Origin: Escherichia coli
GTDB lineage: Bacteria > Pseudomonadota > Gammaproteobacteria > Enterobacterales > Enterobacteriaceae
Reading direction: 5' to 3' (one strand)
Assembly: GCF_003019035.1 (NCBI RefSeq)
Contig: NZ_CP027447.1
Length of the DNA: 64,000 nt
This document shows positions 16,397 through 63,896 of the stretch, piece after piece. Numbering within the stretch: the stretch's first letter is position 1; each line of letters begins with the position of its first letter. The position numbers were made by a program, and so were the translations under genes. Under the pieces are notes generated by a model. That model did not search any database. It was not told the DNA's origin and was given only the letters and a program-made list of their open reading frames with translations.

Positions 16397-17471
16397 CGCT
16401 TTCCAGTCGGGAAATTTGTCGCGCCAGCTGCATTAAAGAATCTGCCAACGCCTGGGGAGAAGCGGTTTGCGTATTGGACGGAAGGGTGGTTTTTCTTTTC
16501 ACCAGTGAGACGGGCAACAGCTGATTGCCCTTCACCGCCTGGCCCTGAGAGAGTTGCAGCAAGCGGTCCACGCTGGTTTGCCCCAGCAGGCGAAAATCCT
16601 GTTTGATGGTGGTTAACGGCGGGATATAACACGAGCTGTCTTCGGTATCGTCGTATCCCACTACCGAGATATCCGCACCAACGCGCAGCCCGGACTCGGT
16701 AATGGCGCGCATTGCGCCCAGCGCCATCTGATCGTTGGCAACCAGCATCGCAGTGGGGACGATGCCCTCATTCAGCATTTGCATGGTTTGTTGAAAACCG
16801 GACATGGCACTCCAGTCGCCTTCCCGTTCCGCTATCGGCTGAATTTGATTGCGTGTGAGATATTTATGCCAGCCCGCCAGACGCAGACGCGCCGAGACAG
16901 AACTTAATGGACCTGCTAACAGCGCGATTTGCTGGTGACCCAATGCGACCAGATGCTCCACGCCCAGTCGCGTACCGTCTTCATGGGAGAAAATAATACT
17001 GTTGATGGGTGTCTGGTCAGAGACATCAAGAAATAAAGCCGGAACATTAGCGCAGGCAGCTTCCACAGCAATGGCATCCTGGTCATCCAGCGGATAGTTA
17101 ATGATCAGCCCACTGACGCGTTGCGCGAGAAGATTGTGCACCGCCGCTTTACAGGCTTCGACGCCGCTTCGTTCTACCATCGACACCACCACGCTGGCAC
17201 CCAGTTGATCAGCGCGAGATTTAATCGCCGCGACAATTTGCGACGGCGCGTGCAGGGCCAGACTGGAAGTGGCAACGCCAATCAGCAACGACTGTTTGCC
17301 CGCCAGTTGTTGTGCCACGCGGTTGGGAATGTAATTCAGCTCCGCCATCGCCGCTTCCACTTTTTCCCGCGTTTTCGCAGAAACGTGGCTGGCCTGGTTC
17401 ACCACGCGGGAAACGGTCTGATAAGAGACACCGGCATATTCTGCGACATCGTATAGCGTTACTGGTTTCAC
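16389..17471 (-). CDS. lacI: lactose repressor, GTG start
   Basis: 360-aa ORF beginning VKPVTLYDVAEYAGVSYQTVSRVVNQ; LacI/GalR HTH. Confidence 0.97.
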   Translation of the reverse strand: MKPVTLYDVAEYAGVSYQTVSRVVNQASHVSAKTREKVEAAMAELNYIPNRVAQQLAGKQSLLIGVATSSLALHAPSQIVAAIKSRADQLGASVVVSMVERSGVEACKAAVHNLLAQRVSGLIINYPLDDQDAIAVEAACANVPALFLDVSDQTPINSIIFSHEDGTRLGVEHLVALGHQQIALLAGPLSSVSARLRLAGWHKYLTRNQIQPIAEREGDWSAMSGFQQTMQMLNEGIVPTAMLVANDQMALGAMRAITESGLRVGADISVVGYDDTEDSSCYIPPLTTIKQDFRLLGQTSVDRLLQLSQGQAVKGNQLLPVSLVKRKTTLPSNTQTASPQALADSLMQLARQISRLESGQ

Positions 17472-47828: not shown

Positions 47829-48290
47829 CTTAAAAACCTATCCCGTCTAACACAAAGTGCATACATTACCACGACAAAACGGGGGATTCGCGGCCTTCTG
47901 ACAGAATGTTGCAATCTTCTGCTGACAAAGCGTGCAACGTACTGGTGAAGAAAGTGCGTTATCTCAATGATGTGCGCAAGATCACAAAAATGATGAACGG
48001 GAAGCTAATTTATTCCTGGCTTGTATGGCCATGCAGTGAGTTTTTTTCTCTTAATTATAAGTTAACGAAGAGAATATATTTCATAACTTTTATTTATAAT
48101 AAAGGTTGATAATTAAAAGCCTATATTTTGTGTGGGTAATTATTAAAATAAGAGAAACGTTTCGCTGGTAATCAAACAAAAAATATTTGCGCAAAGTATT
48201 TCCTTTGTCATAAAAATAATACTTCCAGACACTATGAAGTTGTGAAACATAATGTTAACTTCTCCATACTTTGGATAAGGAAATACAGAC

Positions 48291-48551
48291 ATGAAAAATC
48301 TCATTGCTGAGTTGTTATTTAAGCTTGCCCAAAAAGAAGAAGAGTCGAAAGAACTGTGTGCGCAGGTAGAAGCTTTGGAGATTATCGTCACGGCAATGCT
48401 TCGCAATATGGCGCAAAATGATCAACAGCGGTTGATTGATCAGGTAGAGGGGGCGCTGTACGAGGTAAAGCCCGATGCCAGCATTCCTGACGACGATACG
48501 GAGCTGCTGCGCGATTACGTAAAGAAGTTATTGAGGCATCCTCGTCAGTAA
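48291..48551 (+). CDS. iraP: anti-adaptor protein IraP (stabilises RpoS)
   Basis: 86-aa ORF beginning [30 protein letters not shown]; upstream of phoA. Confidence 0.92.
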
Positions 48552-48571
48552 AAAGTTAATCTTTTCAACAG

Positions 48572-48589
48572 CTGTCATAAAGTTGTCAC
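48572..48589 (+). promoter_or_regulatory. Pho box (ctgtcataaagttgtcac) of the phoA promoter
   Basis: Two direct CTGTCAT-type 7-bp repeats separated by 4 bp, about 60 bp upstream of the phoA GTG. Confidence 0.9.
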
Positions 48590-48651
48590 GGCCAAGACTT
48601 ATAGTCGCTTTGTTTTTATTTTTTAATGTATTTGTACATGGAGAAAATAAA

Positions 48652-50067
48652 GTGAAACAAAGCACTATTGCACTGGCACTCTTACCGTTACTGTTTACCC
48701 CTGTGACAAAAGCCCGGACACCAGAAATGCCTGTTCTGGAAAACCGGGCTGCTCAGGGCGATATTACTGCACCCGGCGGTGCTCGCCGCTTAACGGGTGA
48801 TCAGACCGCCGCTCTGCGTGATTCTCTTAGCGATAAACCTGCAAAAAATATTATTTTGCTGATTGGCGATGGGATGGGGGACTCGGAAATTACTGCCGCA
48901 CGCAATTATGCCGAAGGTGCGGGCGGCTTTTTTAAAGGTATCGATGCCTTACCGCTTACCGGACAATACACACACTATGCGCTGAATAAAAAAACCGGCA
49001 AACCGGACTACGTCACCGACTCGGCTGCATCAGCAACCGCCTGGTCAACTGGTGTCAAAACCTATAACGGCGCGCTGGGCGTCGATATTCACGAAAAAGA
49101 TCACCCAACGATTCTGGAAATGGCAAAAGCCGCAGGTCTGGCGACCGGTAACGTTTCTACCGCAGAGTTGCAGGATGCCACGCCCGCTGCGCTGGTGGCG
49201 CATGTGACCTCGCGCAAATGCTACGGTCCGAGCGCGACCAGTGAAAAATGTCCGGGTAACGCTCTGGAAAAAGGCGGAAAAGGATCGATTACCGAACAGC
49301 TGCTTAACGCCCGTGCCGATGTTACGCTTGGCGGCGGCGCAAAAACCTTTGCTGAAACGGCAACCGTCGGCGAATGGCAGGGAAAAACGCTGCGTGAACA
49401 GGCACAGGCGCGTGGTTATCAGTTGGTGAGTGATGCTGCCTCGCTAAATGCGGTGACGGAAGCGAACCAGCAAAAACCCCTGCTAGGACTATTTGCTGAC
49501 GGCAATATGCCAGTGCGCTGGCTAGGACCGAAAGCAACGTACCACGGCAATATCGACAAGCCCGCAGTTACCTGTACGCCTAATCCGCAACGTAATGACA
49601 GCGTACCGACCCTGGCGCAGATGACCGACAAAGCCATTGAATTGTTGAGTAAAAATGAGAAAGGCTTTTTCCTGCAAGTTGAAGGTGCATCAATCGATAA
49701 ACAGGATCACGCTGCGAATCCTTGTGGGCAAATTGGCGAGACGGTCGATCTCGATGAAGCCGTACAACGTGCGCTGGAATTCGCTAAAAAGGATGGCAAC
49801 ACGCTGGTCATAGTCACCGCTGATCACGCCCACGCCAGCCAGATTGTCGCGCCGGACACCAAAGCGCCGGGCCTCACCCAGGCGCTAAATACCAAAGATG
49901 GCGCAGTGATGGTGATGAGTTACGGGAACTCCGAAGAGGATTCACAAGAACATACCGGCAGTCAGTTGCGTATTGCAGCGTATGGCCCACATGCCGCCAA
50001 TGTCGTTGGACTGACCGACCAGACCGATCTCTTCTACACCATGAAAGCCGCCCTGGGGCTGAAATAA
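48652..50067 (+). CDS. phoA: alkaline phosphatase, GTG start
   Basis: 471 aa from [21 protein letters not shown]; active-site region DSAASATAW. Confidence 0.97.
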
Positions 50068-50185
50068 AACCGCGCCCGGCGGTGAATTTTTGCTGTCGGG
50101 TGGTTTTTTTGCTGTTAGCAACCAGACTTAATGGCAGATCACGGGCGCAAACGCTCATGGTTAAAACATGAAGAGGGATGGTGCT

Positions 50186-50506
50186 ATGAAAATAACATTA
50201 CTGGTTACCTTGCTTTTCGGACTGGTTTTTTTAACCACCGTCGGCGCTGCCGAGAGAACCTTAACCCCGCAACAACAGCGTATGACCTCCTGTAATCAGC
50301 AGGCGACGGCGCAGGCGTTGAAAGGGGATGCTCGTAAGACCTACATGAGTGATTGCCTGAAGAACAGCAAGTCTGCGCCTGGTGAAAAAAGTTTGACGCC
50401 ACAGCAGCAAAAGATGCGCGAATGTAATAATCAAGCAACGCAACAATCTCTGAAAGGTGATGATCGTAATAAGTTTATGAGCGCCTGCCTCAAGAAAGCC
50501 GCCTGA
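50186..50506 (+). CDS. psiF: phosphate-starvation-inducible protein PsiF
   Basis: 106 aa with signal peptide and two internal repeats (LTPQQQ...C..QAT.Q.LKGD.R..(Y/F)MS.CLK). Confidence 0.93.
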   Translation: MKITLLVTLLFGLVFLTTVGAAERTLTPQQQRMTSCNQQATAQALKGDARKTYMSDCLKNSKSAPGEKSLTPQQQKMRECNNQATQQSLKGDDRNKFMSACLKKAA

Positions 50507-50523
50507 TACCTGATAGTGCTAAC

Positions 50524-50549
50524 GGGTGAGCTACGAAAATGGCTCACCC
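50524..50549 (+). terminator. Hairpin (gggtgagc...gctcaccc) downstream of psiF
   Basis: Perfect 8-bp stem; weak T-tract. Confidence 0.5.
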
Positions 50550-50607
50550 GAAATTTCATACTTCTGCCTTTAGCCCCGTCTCTATAATTTGGGAAAATTG
50601 TTTCTGA

Positions 50608-51723
50608 ATGTTCCCAAAAATAATGAATGATGAAAACTTTTTCAAAAAAGCGGCGGCGCATGGGGAGGAACCTCCTTTAACTCCTCAAAACGAACATCAG
50701 CGATCCGGGCTGCGCTTCGCCCGTCGCGTCAGACTACCCCGCGCGGTTGGCCTGGCTGGCATGTTCTTACCGATTGCTTCAACGCTGGTTTCGCACCCGC
50801 CGCCGGGCTGGTGGTGGCTGGTGTTGGTCGGCTGGGCGTTCGTCTGGCCGCATTTAGCCTGGCAGATAGCGAGCAGGGCCGTCGATCCGCTTAGCCGGGA
50901 AATTTACAACTTAAAAACCGATGCAGTATTAGCGGGAATGTGGGTAGGCGTAATGGGCGTAAACGTGCTGCCTTCCACCGCGATGTTGATGATTATGTGT
51001 CTGAATTTGATGGGGGCAGGCGGCCCCCGTCTGTTTGTCGCGGGTCTGGTGTTGATGGTGGTTTCCTGCCTTGTCACCCTCGAACTGACGGGCATCACCG
51101 TGTCGTTCAATAGTGCGCCGCTGGAATGGTGGCTCTCCCTTCCCATTATCGTCATTTATCCTCTGCTGTTTGGCTGGGTCAGCTACCAGACGGCGACTAA
51201 ACTGGCGGAACATAAACGCAGGTTGCAGGTCATGAGTACCCGCGACGGTATGACGGGCGTGTATAACCGACGTCATTGGGAAACTATGTTACGCAATGAA
51301 TTTGATAACTGTCGGCGGCATAACCGCGATGCGACATTACTGATTATCGATATCGACCATTTCAAGAGCATCAACGATACCTGGGGCCATGATGTGGGCG
51401 ATGAAGCGATTGTGGCGCTTACCCGACAGTTACAAATAACCCTGCGCGGTAGCGATGTGATTGGTCGGTTTGGCGGCGATGAGTTTGCGGTAATCATGTC
51501 CGGTACGCCAGCTGAGAGCGCCATTACCGCCATGTTACGAGTGCATGAAGGGCTAAATACATTACGTCTGCCGAATACGCCACAGGTAACTTTACGGATT
51601 AGTGTGGGGGTTGCGCCGCTGAACCCACAAATGAGTCACTATCGTGAGTGGTTGAAATCGGCAGATTTGGCGCTTTACAAAGCAAAGAAAGCCGGACGTA
51701 ACCGCACCGAAGTGGCGGCCTGA
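50608..51723 (+). CDS. dgcC: diguanylate cyclase (MASE2 membrane domain plus GGDEF)
   Basis: 371-aa ORF with GGDEF motif RFGGDEF; also known as adrA/yaiC. Confidence 0.95.
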   Translation: MFPKIMNDENFFKKAAAHGEEPPLTPQNEHQRSGLRFARRVRLPRAVGLAGMFLPIASTLVSHPPPGWWWLVLVGWAFVWPHLAWQIASRAVDPLSREIYNLKTDAVLAGMWVGVMGVNVLPSTAMLMIMCLNLMGAGGPRLFVAGLVLMVVSCLVTLELTGITVSFNSAPLEWWLSLPIIVIYPLLFGWVSYQTATKLAEHKRRLQVMSTRDGMTGVYNRRHWETMLRNEFDNCRRHNRDATLLIIDIDHFKSINDTWGHDVGDEAIVALTRQLQITLRGSDVIGRFGGDEFAVIMSGTPAESAITAMLRVHEGLNTLRLPNTPQVTLRISVGVAPLNPQMSHYREWLKSADLALYKAKKAGRNRTEVAA

Positions 51724-51739
51724 CGTCCGGCAAAAGTCA

Positions 51740-52549
51740 TCAGGATTTACTGAGTTTTTCTGATTTTTCCATACACTTCGTCATCGCTTCGATCACTGCG
51801 GCACGGAAGCCTTTCTCTTCCAGTACGCGTACCGCCTCAATGGTGGTGCCTCCCGGTGAGCAGACCATATCTTTCAGTGCCCCTGGATGTTCTCCCGTTT
51901 CCAGCACCATTTTTGCGGAACCCATTACCGCCTGAGCGGCAAATTTATACGCCTGGGCGCGTGGCATCCCGCCCAGCACGGCGGCGTCGGCCATCGCTTC
52001 GATAAACATAAAGACGTAGGCTGGCGAAGAACCGCTCACACCGACCACCGGGTGGATCATCGGCTCGGCAATTACTTCCGCTTCGCCAAAGCAGCGGAAA
52101 ATATTCAGCACATCAGCGGTATCTTCTGGGGTTACCAGCGCGTTTGGCGTTACGGAGGTCATCCCGGCATTAACCAGCGCGGGAGTGTTCGGCATGGCGC
52201 GGATAATTTTCCGGTCATGGCCCAGCGCGCGGGCAAGCTGGTCGAGTGTGATACCTGCAGCAATAGAAACGACCAGAGAGTCTTTATTCAGGCTGGAGGT
52301 GATTTCGCTAAGCACTTTAATCATGATGCCAGGTTTAACGGCGGCAAAAATGATGTCGGCGATTTGCGCCACTTCTTGCGCCGAATCTGCGGCGTTGATG
52401 CCGAACTGGTCATGCAGGGCGGCGACTTTATCCGGGGAGGGGGTATATACCCAGATTTGCCCTGGAAGCACCTGACCGCTGGCAATCAGACCGCCGAGAA
52501 TGGCTTTTCCCATATTGCCGCAGCCAATAAAACCGATTTTCTTTTCCAT
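51740..52549 (-). CDS. proC: pyrroline-5-carboxylate reductase
   Basis: 269 aa from [20 protein letters not shown]; start set at internal ATG. Confidence 0.96.
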
Positions 52550-63854: not shown

Positions 63855-63896
63855 TTTTCATAAATCTGTCATAAATCTGACGCATAATGACGTCGC
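63855..63896 (+). promoter_or_regulatory. Pho boxes of the phoB promoter (ttttcataaatctgtcataaatctgacgcataatgacgtcgc)
   Basis: Tandem CTGTCAT/TTTTCAT-type 7-bp repeats at 11-bp spacing upstream of phoB. Confidence 0.85.

Follow-up and report, generated by a model that had tools for sequence, protein, structure and literature searches.

Transcription of the membrane diguanylate cyclase gene dgcC (adrA/yaiC) is probably raised during phosphate starvation by PhoB-driven phoA-psiF transcription leaking past the hairpin that follows psiF. This read-through, put forward in the original prediction as a question, is supported by the PhoB dependence of yaiC, the lack of a PhoB site belonging to the gene itself and the missing U-tract behind the hairpin. 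Both the locus and the link between phosphate and the cyclase are already known, and the predicted finding is correct but ordinary; as the link has been documented in uropathogenic Escherichia coli (UPEC), its confirmation adds little. New here are the independent presence of phoA and dgcC around psiF, the conservation of the hairpin with or without dgcC, and the CGGGTGAG box in its left arm.

Locus and gene content

The stretch, part of a 64 kb window (the whole length of DNA analysed), is the E. coli chromosomal iraP-phoA-psiF-dgcC(adrA/yaiC)-proC locus. Based on genome comparison, its DNA was 100% identical to that of many sequenced E. coli strains, and the locus was found in 5420 of 5426 complete E. 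coli genomes, with identities of 95-100% across these 5420. The window comes from a non-K-12 strain and is identical over this stretch to FDAARGOS_497 and others. An Rfam scan of positions 48000-52000 returned no family at E<=1.

All features described below lie on the plus strand. The phoA gene (48652..50067) encodes an alkaline phosphatase of 471 aa from a GTG start, with a full-length PF00245 match (E=7e-137; 457 bits against a cut-off of 24.4), and psiF (50186..50506) encodes a secreted protein of 106 aa. The dgcC gene (50608..51723) encodes MASE2 and GGDEF domains (PF05230, E=1e-31, 109 bits; PF00990, E=1e-47, 162 bits), with the GGDEF motif at aa 289-293 (window 51472-51486) and an RxxD I-site (RGSD) at aa 280. 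With MASE2, an intact GGDEF motif and the I-site, it has the sequence features of an AdrA/DgcC-type cyclase. RefSeq annotation agreed with the three gene calls, naming dgcC 'diguanylate cyclase AdrA', and the gene identities originally proposed were confirmed.

The phoA promoter and terminator

Promoters of the Pho regulon possess two 7-bp direct repeats (CTGTCAT), 11 bp apart, that replace the -35 element about 10 bp upstream of the -10. The predicted Pho box, or PhoB binding site, was found in front of phoA at 48572..48589 (CTGTCATAAAGTTGTCAC), where it takes the place of the -35 element; the -10 follows 10 bp downstream, and the distance to the GTG codon (48652) is 80 bp. In the motif scan it had two mismatches to the consensus CTGTCATAWAWCTGTCAY, and four matches with at most three mismatches were observed in the window against 0.19 expected. 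The hexamer TATAGT (48600..48605), as read from the sequence, presumably acts as the phoA -10, and together with CTGTCATAAAGTTGTCAC it gives the arrangement of a PhoB-activated, sigma-70 promoter. The box sequence also matches the K-12 PhoB ChIP-seq site listed for phoA (K-12 position 401676), and most of the 64 loci that contain phoA have kept a Pho box at a distance of about 80 bp in front of the gene.

A canonical intrinsic terminator that the original prediction had overlooked lies between phoA and psiF (50073..50112), with a GC-rich stem of 13 pairs followed by GGTTTTTTT (T7); the terminator scan gave its U-tract as GTTTTTTT. Its lower stem is invariant and its upper stem covaries: in an alignment of 52 sequences, five pairs showed compensatory changes while the T-tract was kept, and in 47 of 65 loci the first 8 nt behind the stem included at least five T.

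PhoB dependence of dgcC

Published RNA-seq of K-12 in low phosphate (Fitzgerald et al. 2023, Table S1) compared the wild type with a phoB deletion; the DESeq2 counts used here are steady-state gene totals, rather than junction-spanning reads or a 3'-end map. The counts were 310,112 and 1,548 for phoA (200-fold) and 32,618 and 755 for psiF (43-fold), in wild type and deletion respectively, so that the Pho regulation claimed for this PhoB-bound operon is borne out by published data. For yaiC they were 455 and 65, a 7-fold PhoB dependence (log2 2.8, q=2.3e-19). In the K-12 ChIP-seq and RNA-seq data, yaiC depends on PhoB and has no PhoB site itself, the nearest one being that of the phoA promoter. 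Neither csgD (log2 0.3, q=0.48) nor proC (log2 -0.4) changed, iraP and csgF were 2.4-fold and 2.5-fold (log2 1.3) higher in the wild type than in the deletion, respectively, and fimB was higher in the phoB deletion (log2 -1.4) (Fitzgerald et al. 2023).

Computed per nucleotide from these counts, the signals of phoA, psiF and yaiC were 219, 102 and 0.41, respectively. The psiF:phoA ratio was 0.46, RNA per nucleotide fell about 250-fold between psiF and dgcC, and the PhoB-dependent yaiC:psiF ratio was 0.35%, a figure that mixes termination with differential RNA stability.

A cryptic PhoB-dependent promoter within psiF or the spacer, driving dgcC directly, is extremely unlikely. Some internal promoter activity is suggested by psiF RNA, which per nucleotide amounted to 2.2 times that of phoA in the phoB deletion, but this activity is PhoB-independent. 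Moreover, the published K-12 PhoB ChIP-seq lists no other site between 401676 and 417093, i.e. from the phoA to the phoB promoter, and of the Pho-box-like sequences in the interval from the phoA stop to the start of dgcC, the best had six mismatches out of 18 and none had fewer.

Whether phosphate starvation reaches the cyclase had already been answered for UPEC, as relayed by citing reviews: PhoBR activates YaiC, c-di-GMP increases and type 1 fimbriae are repressed (Crépin et al. 2017, J Bacteriol 199:e00168-17). Papers citing that study relay the circuit and leave out the co-transcription experiment. In the main texts on the Pho transcriptomes of APEC, EHEC and Citrobacter rodentium and of an iModulon study, phoA-psiF was listed and yaiC/adrA was not mentioned.

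The psiF-dgcC spacer

As predicted, dgcC follows psiF on the same strand at a distance of about 100 bp (101 nt from stop to start) and behind a hairpin. The latter (50523..50550) is GC-rich, with a folding energy of -20.1 kcal/mol (z=-4.5), and is a candidate leaky terminator or 3'-end stem. It has the stem of an intrinsic terminator followed by the tail AAATTTCA, without a U-tract, which is why it was passed over in the terminator scan; in all 55 dgcC-bearing sequences, the 8 nt after the stem contained only 1-4 T (mostly 2-3). From its sequence, it would stabilise the 3' end or terminate weakly or atypically rather than act as a canonical member of the class. The hairpin was present in 54/54 dgcC-bearing loci, with both arms invariant and the loop variable. 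Among loci lacking dgcC, the exact core was found in 15 of 26 and related hairpins in most others, and the upper stem showed compensatory changes. Variants in the absence of dgcC included GGGTGAA/TTCACCC (compensatory) and GGGTGGG/CTCACCC (wobble). The idea that genomes without dgcC had gained a T-run after the hairpin was dropped, as a count showed only few to have one.

The left arm of the hairpin, CGGGTGAGCTA (50523-50533), may serve as the CsgD box in the dgcC promoter. The CsgD box consensus is CGGGKGAGNKA, and the exact match at 50523-50533 was the sole one in the 64 kb; an exact match was also found upstream of csgB. The consensus is said to come from the work of Brombacher in 2003 and Zakikhany in 2010 and to have been built on the csgB and dgcC/adrA promoters, and the match is therefore a partly circular test of a CsgD box. 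The CGGGTGAG box common to the csgB promoter and the left arm is treated here as a putative CsgD box. Reviews place adrA transcription under CsgD control. CsgD-activated promoters include those of csgBAC and of adrA in Salmonella and E. coli. The motif CATACTT comes after CGGGTGAGCTA in the dgcC spacer, which also has a -10 lacking a -35, and after CGGGTGAGTTA at csgB, but the dgcC box forms one arm of the psiF-terminal hairpin whereas that of csgB has no inverted partner.

Downstream of the hairpin, a block in the dgcC promoter region, AAATNTCATACT(T) (50551..50563), was invariant across dgcC-bearing spacers; its CATACTT motif recurs behind the CGGGTGAG box of csgB. A perfect TATAAT (50583..50588), present in all 49 distinct dgcC-bearing spacers, is probably the -10 of an activator-dependent promoter belonging to dgcC; it was missed by a simple promoter scan because it has no recognisable -35. 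A box placed ahead of a -10 that has only a poor -35 is the sequence arrangement of a CsgD-dependent promoter.

The invariance of both arms in 54/54 dgcC-bearing loci beside a freely varying loop, and the match of the left arm to the CGGGKGAGNKA box at csgB, would also fit an inverted repeat serving purely as a DNA operator, namely a palindromic CsgD site for dgcC with no RNA role. This reading is very unlikely, however, since the hairpin is kept after psiF in loci without dgcC, with its compensatory and wobble variants, the csgB box lacks an inverted partner, and the phoA terminator has the same invariant lower and covarying upper stem. The argument that invariant arms suffice as proof of a protein-binding palindrome was dropped because of that terminator stem and the persistence of the hairpin without dgcC.

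Probable read-through into dgcC

Under phosphate limitation, phospho-PhoB on the Pho box (48572-48589) drives, according to the literature, very strong phoA transcription. The post-phoA terminator would let about half of the transcript signal pass into psiF, judging from the RNA-seq ratio, and psiF ends in the conserved GC-rich hairpin lacking a U-tract. RNA drops about 250-fold there, and the remaining 0.35% or so would enter dgcC, as the RNA-seq ratios and the adjacency of the genes suggest. The dgcC promoter itself (CGGGTGAG box, TATAAT, no -35) probably needs CsgD/sigma-S and would be nearly silent under these conditions, so that a small leak would be enough for the observed PhoB-dependent mRNA rise of about 7-fold. 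According to the literature, when the Pho regulon of UPEC is constitutively active, the additional DgcC raises c-di-GMP and represses type 1 fimbriae. The 250-fold drop exceeds what a hairpin without a U-tract should achieve alone, and Rho or RNA decay may contribute.

An RpoS-linked, indirect contribution is possible because iraP and csgF are also PhoB-dependent. Taken further, the PhoB dependence of dgcC would be wholly indirect, via IraP-stabilised RpoS, CsgD or another regulator acting on the promoter of dgcC itself, with negligible read-through from psiF. Such an account would agree with the steep fall in RNA from psiF to dgcC and with the complete dgcC promoter conserved in 54/54 loci, whose box is common to csgB. 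It is nevertheless rather unlikely, as csgD mRNA was unchanged, the change of yaiC was greater than that of iraP or csgF, and dgcC lies on the same strand directly downstream of a transcript that ranks among the most strongly induced of the cell, with a hairpin devoid of a U-tract between them. Crépin and co-workers are also said to have credited the linkage, yaiC transcription being reportedly physically linked to the phoA-psiF transcript. Under the preferred reading, read-through past the hairpin, less than one percent of the transcription of a very strongly induced operon suffices to regulate a neighbouring gene of low expression, and the locus thereby connects c-di-GMP, adhesion and biofilm behaviour with phosphate starvation.

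Distribution across Enterobacteriaceae

The comparative set consisted of 80 Enterobacteriaceae loci. Among them, phoA and dgcC were each present or absent independently, and all loci retrieved contained psiF. Salmonella enterica was sampled in two subspecies, arizonae and diarizonae, both of which lacked phoA and its Pho box and kept psiF-adrA; dgcC was absent in Klebsiella, Raoultella and Kosakonia.

A tentative and on balance doubtful proposal is that the psiF-terminal hairpin is a selected, dual-purpose element, combining a leaky RNA terminator with a DNA CsgD operator of dgcC in its left arm. If so, a terminator without a U-tract would meter a small Pho-dependent flow into dgcC, and a single sequence of 28 bp would be the point at which phosphate starvation meets the curli/cellulose programme, where read-through could possibly interfere with or prime CsgD-dependent initiation. 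The coupling would then be lineage-specific, being predicted absent in the two sampled S. enterica subspecies and without relevance to the dgcC-less Klebsiella, Raoultella and Kosakonia. The independent gain or loss of phoA and dgcC around psiF, the loss of the Pho box in these two S. enterica subspecies and the candidate CsgD box inside the psiF hairpin may be of use to specialists.

PsiF

The two internal repeats predicted for PsiF were recovered, as the protein matched PF07769 twice (E=9e-34; 115.5 bits against a cut-off of 21) and its halves were 65% identical (E=7e-18, internal repeat comparison). Each repeat possesses two cysteines, rather than the one originally described (C36/C57 and C80/C101, spacing C-x20-C), and all four were invariant in 33 homologues. 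The N-terminus has a hydrophobic helix (residues 3-18) followed by VGA/AE, which by eye resembles a signal peptide. PsiF is probably a Sec-exported periplasmic protein with two disulfide-stapled helical hairpins. In the structure prediction suggested as a follow-up, the AF2 model showed two helix-loop-helix units and was only moderately confident (pLDDT 69). Neither a fold search of the model against the PDB (best E=2.6) nor a sequence-profile search against the PDB (best E=0.045, a viral shutoff protein) gave a significant match and, given these results and the moderate pLDDT, no function was inferred. The statement that PsiF has no known function is still fair, as the one phenotype met in the literature concerns persister resuscitation upon over-expression. 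The protein is conserved, Pho-induced and predicted to be periplasmic, and no biochemical function is known for it.

Comparison with known systems

Compared with the K-12 phoA-psiF operon and the adjacent adrA/yaiC/dgcC, the genes, their order, the Pho box, the spacer and the annotation are alike, and the PhoB ChIP site is identical in sequence, with no difference of substance. The PhoBR-YaiC circuit of UPEC CFT073, as described in citing papers, involves the same locus and the same proposed logic, with Pho activation raising the cyclase downstream of phoA-psiF. The evidence from that uropathogen was obtained in a pst mutant, whereas the support given here comes from K-12 RNA-seq in low phosphate and comparative genomics.

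The Pseudomonas fluorescens phosphodiesterase RapA and Vibrio cholerae acgAB are c-di-GMP enzymes with PhoB-dependent promoters of their own. PhoB likewise ties phosphate limitation to c-di-GMP turnover in these systems, but the E. coli coupling apparently arises by leak-through from an upstream Pho operon, and c-di-GMP is raised, not lowered.

Gene content and conservation of the locus

The ORF list and the sequence placed iraP, phoA (48652-50067), psiF (50186-50506) and dgcC (50608-51723) on the plus strand, with ddlA and, after dgcC, proC on the minus strand; the RefSeq names are iraP, phoA, psiF, adrA and proC. Pfam searches confirmed the IraP family for the iraP product and identified PhoA as Alk_phosphatase (E = 7e-137), PsiF as two PsiF repeats (E = 9e-34) and DgcC as MASE2 (E = 1e-31) plus GGDEF (E = 1e-47). 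phoA begins with the GTG at 48652; a longer ORF from a TTG at 48583 arose as an artefact when ORFs were called mechanically. A 67-aa ORF in the ddlA-iraP interval (47906-48109) corresponds to the RefSeq hypothetical protein WP_001317654.1. When 48200-52000 was compared with all complete E. coli genomes by megablast, it was matched in 5425 of 5426, with query coverage of at least 80% in 5420 of 5426, and 100% identical strains were numerous. In the human-gut isolate E. coli EC11 (locus L082), an IS1 element splits iraP close upstream of the phoA promoter, at the equivalent of about 48290-48550.

Pho boxes and the phoA-psiF spacer

As originally predicted, a Pho box precedes phoA (CTGTCATAAAGTTGTCAC, 48572-48589), with TATAGT 10 bp downstream; the same sequence lies beneath the MG1655 PhoB ChIP-seq peak at phoA (Fitzgerald et al. 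2023). Over the whole window, the Pho-box consensus was matched four times at no more than three mismatches, versus 0.19 expected. Two overlapping matches in the sbcD-phoB intergenic region (TTTTCATAAATCTGTCAT and CTGTCATAAATCTGACGC, 63855-63883) are the autoregulated phoB promoter, in agreement with the PhoB ChIP site at K-12 position 417093. A further Pho-box-like sequence with three mismatches (CTGGCATAAATATCTCAC, 16855-16872, minus strand), located inside lacI by collinearity with NZ_CP033850.1, is probably due to chance, as no PhoB ChIP peak is given at this site.

The phoA-psiF interval also contains a canonical terminator overlooked in the original prediction (50073-50112), composed of a 13-pair stem and GTTTTTTT. 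Taken as a control for the hairpin after psiF, it showed a like pattern of invariant lower stem and covarying upper stem, with five pairs carrying compensatory changes, and a retained T-tract; 47 of 65 loci had at least five T within 8 nt 3' of the stem. Close upstream of psiF (50103-50130), a block GGTGGTTTTTTT-N(10-12)-(G/A)ACCAGACTTA was kept in nearly all loci retrieved from other genomes (L002-L081), including those lacking phoA, and psiF RNA per nucleotide reached 2.2 times that of phoA in ΔphoB (length-corrected Table S1 counts). Together, these two observations are a hint that psiF may have a weak promoter of its own within the spacer, independent of PhoB.

PhoB dependence of dgcC

The link between phosphate starvation and dgcC, originally raised as a question, was supported by published data, in which yaiC (dgcC) was 7-fold PhoB-dependent in low phosphate (Fitzgerald et al. 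2023, Table S1); the main text of that paper nowhere mentions yaiC. The DESeq2-normalised counts, which are not length-corrected, were 318602/301623 in the wild type versus 1490/1607 in ΔphoB for phoA, 36626/28610 versus 852/659 for psiF, and 471/439 versus 53/76 for yaiC (log2 2.8, q = 2.3e-19). Divided by gene length, they gave 219, 102 and 0.41 counts per nt for phoA, psiF and dgcC in the wild type, and 1.09, 2.35 and 0.058 in ΔphoB. Around 46% of the phoA signal thus passes on into psiF. Of the psiF signal that depends on PhoB, only some 0.35% is seen in dgcC; given the very low basal expression of dgcC, this still amounts to a 7-fold rise.

Read-through from the phoA promoter is the best-supported explanation for this dependence. 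Three findings favour it over direct or indirect alternatives: the best-matching Pho-box-like sequence in the phoA-dgcC interval has 6/18 mismatches, no PhoB ChIP site is given between the phoA and phoB promoters (Fitzgerald et al. 2023), and Table S1 shows no change in csgD (log2 0.3, q = 0.48) or in proC, which is convergent (log2 -0.4). An RpoS-linked indirect component may nevertheless add to read-through, given that iraP was 2.4-fold PhoB-dependent and csgF was up (log2 1.3) in the same table.

Post-psiF hairpin and candidate CsgD box

dgcC follows psiF after a 101-nt stop-to-start spacer containing, as predicted, a hairpin (50523-50550; -20.1 kcal/mol, z = -4.5). Directly 3' of it lies AAATTTCA, which had been overlooked and contains no U-tract; for want of a U-tract, the hairpin was not called by the terminator scan. 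The spacer measured 89-112 nt in all 54 dgcC-containing loci, where its conserved blocks were cGGGTGAG, CTCACCCGAAATnTCATACT and CTATAATTTGGGAAA, the first two separated by a variable loop and the last two by about 17 variable nt, with one to four T (mostly two or three) within 8 nt 3' of the stem. Among dgcC-less genomes, 15 of 26 had the exact hairpin core after psiF and most others had related hairpins, some of them with compensatory or wobble changes (GGGTGAA/TTCACCC, GGGTGGG/CTCACCC). Folding of 71 distinct sequences with RNAalifold showed five invariant lower pairs and covarying upper pairs, both sides being altered in 13 sequences at one pair and in three at another. From these alignments, we conclude that the hairpin is an RNA-level 3'-end element of psiF and lacks the U-tract that canonical terminators carry.

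The left arm, CGGGTGAGCTA, fits the CsgD-box consensus CGGGKGAGNKA, reportedly from Brombacher 2003 and Zakikhany 2010, and the consensus had this single exact match within the 64-kb window, versus 0.27 expected. In the E. coli csgB promoter, an exact CGGGTGAGTTA precedes the csgB ATG by 125 bp and has CATACTT after it; two blocks (box and CATACTT) are common to the dgcC spacer and the csgB promoter. No inverted partner of the box was present in the csgB promoter, and the dgcC right arm is therefore accounted for by the hairpin rather than by CsgD binding. As the consensus is said to have been first derived from the dgcC and csgB promoters themselves, the match supports the consensus as given here and the common cis-blocks, not CsgD binding.

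PsiF protein

The two predicted repeats of PsiF were recovered (mature halves 65% identical), but each has two cysteines instead of the one originally described (36, 57, 80 and 101; C-x20-C spacing), all four being invariant in 33 homologues. The suggested structure prediction gave a moderate AlphaFold2 model (pLDDT 69; 33-sequence alignment) with a signal-like N-terminal helix. Its two further units, H28-42/H48-60 and H72-86/H92-104, are each helix-loop-helix and could each be stapled by their cysteine pair. Neither Foldseek (best E = 2.6) nor sequence-profile searches (best E = 0.045) returned a significant match. In keeping with its description as a protein of no known function, the sole functional report found was that PsiF over-production alters persister resuscitation. 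As a best guess, made with low confidence, PsiF would be a periplasmic protein stabilised by disulfides, with a binding or chaperone-like role.

Distribution of phoA and dgcC in Enterobacteriaceae

Using the PsiF alignment, 80 loci were retrieved from Enterobacteriaceae reference genomes and mapped for iraP, phoA, psiF, dgcC and proC, psiF being present in each by search design. The locus is a mosaic around psiF: 47 loci had both phoA and dgcC, 17 phoA only (Klebsiella, Raoultella, Kosakonia, Trabulsiella and others), seven dgcC only (Salmonella enterica subsp. arizonae and diarizonae, C. sedlakii, E. cloacae, E. hormaechei and one Leclercia), and nine neither. About 1.7 kb of other DNA replaces dgcC in the psiF-proC interval of Kosakonia and relatives (L030, L036, L038, L039, L050, L069-L071), and dgcC and proC are about 1.7 kb apart in Phytobacter and relatives (L037, L041, L042, L044, L045).

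In some phoA-less genomes (L021, L054, L059, L064, L074), a Pho box persists at a long distance upstream of psiF. In the two Salmonella and seven other phoA-less loci, the iraP-psiF interval had no Pho box at up to four mismatches, and a phoA terminator remnant persisted. In the subspecies arizonae and diarizonae (L014, L022), where phoA and the Pho box are gone, this remnant, a scar left when phoA was lost, is the 3' half of the terminator upstream of psiF; adrA still lies next to psiF and retains its complete promoter block. Salmonella is predicted to be without Pho-to-AdrA coupling.

Comparison with known Pho regulation

Apart from the cysteine count, the original observation was real and correctly placed, and its interpretation was right. 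The modest new points are the presence-absence mosaic of phoA and dgcC, the U-tract-less hairpin, which persists whether dgcC is present or not, and the fact that this hairpin overlaps a candidate CsgD box. The read-through question itself is already answered in the literature: according to three citing papers, pst inactivation or phosphate starvation activates YaiC through PhoBR, so that c-di-GMP rises and type 1 fimbriae are repressed in UPEC CFT073, and yaiC deletion brings back fimbriation (Crépin et al. 2017). In K-12 lacking phoB, fimB was 2.6-fold higher (log2 -1.4), and dgcZ was also raised (log2 -1.3; Fitzgerald et al. 2023, Table S1). The fimB rise agrees with the UPEC report, in which Pho activation leads to less fim switching. 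The abstract by Crépin and colleagues reportedly put the effect down to yaiC transcription linked to the PhoB-dependent phoA-psiF operon.
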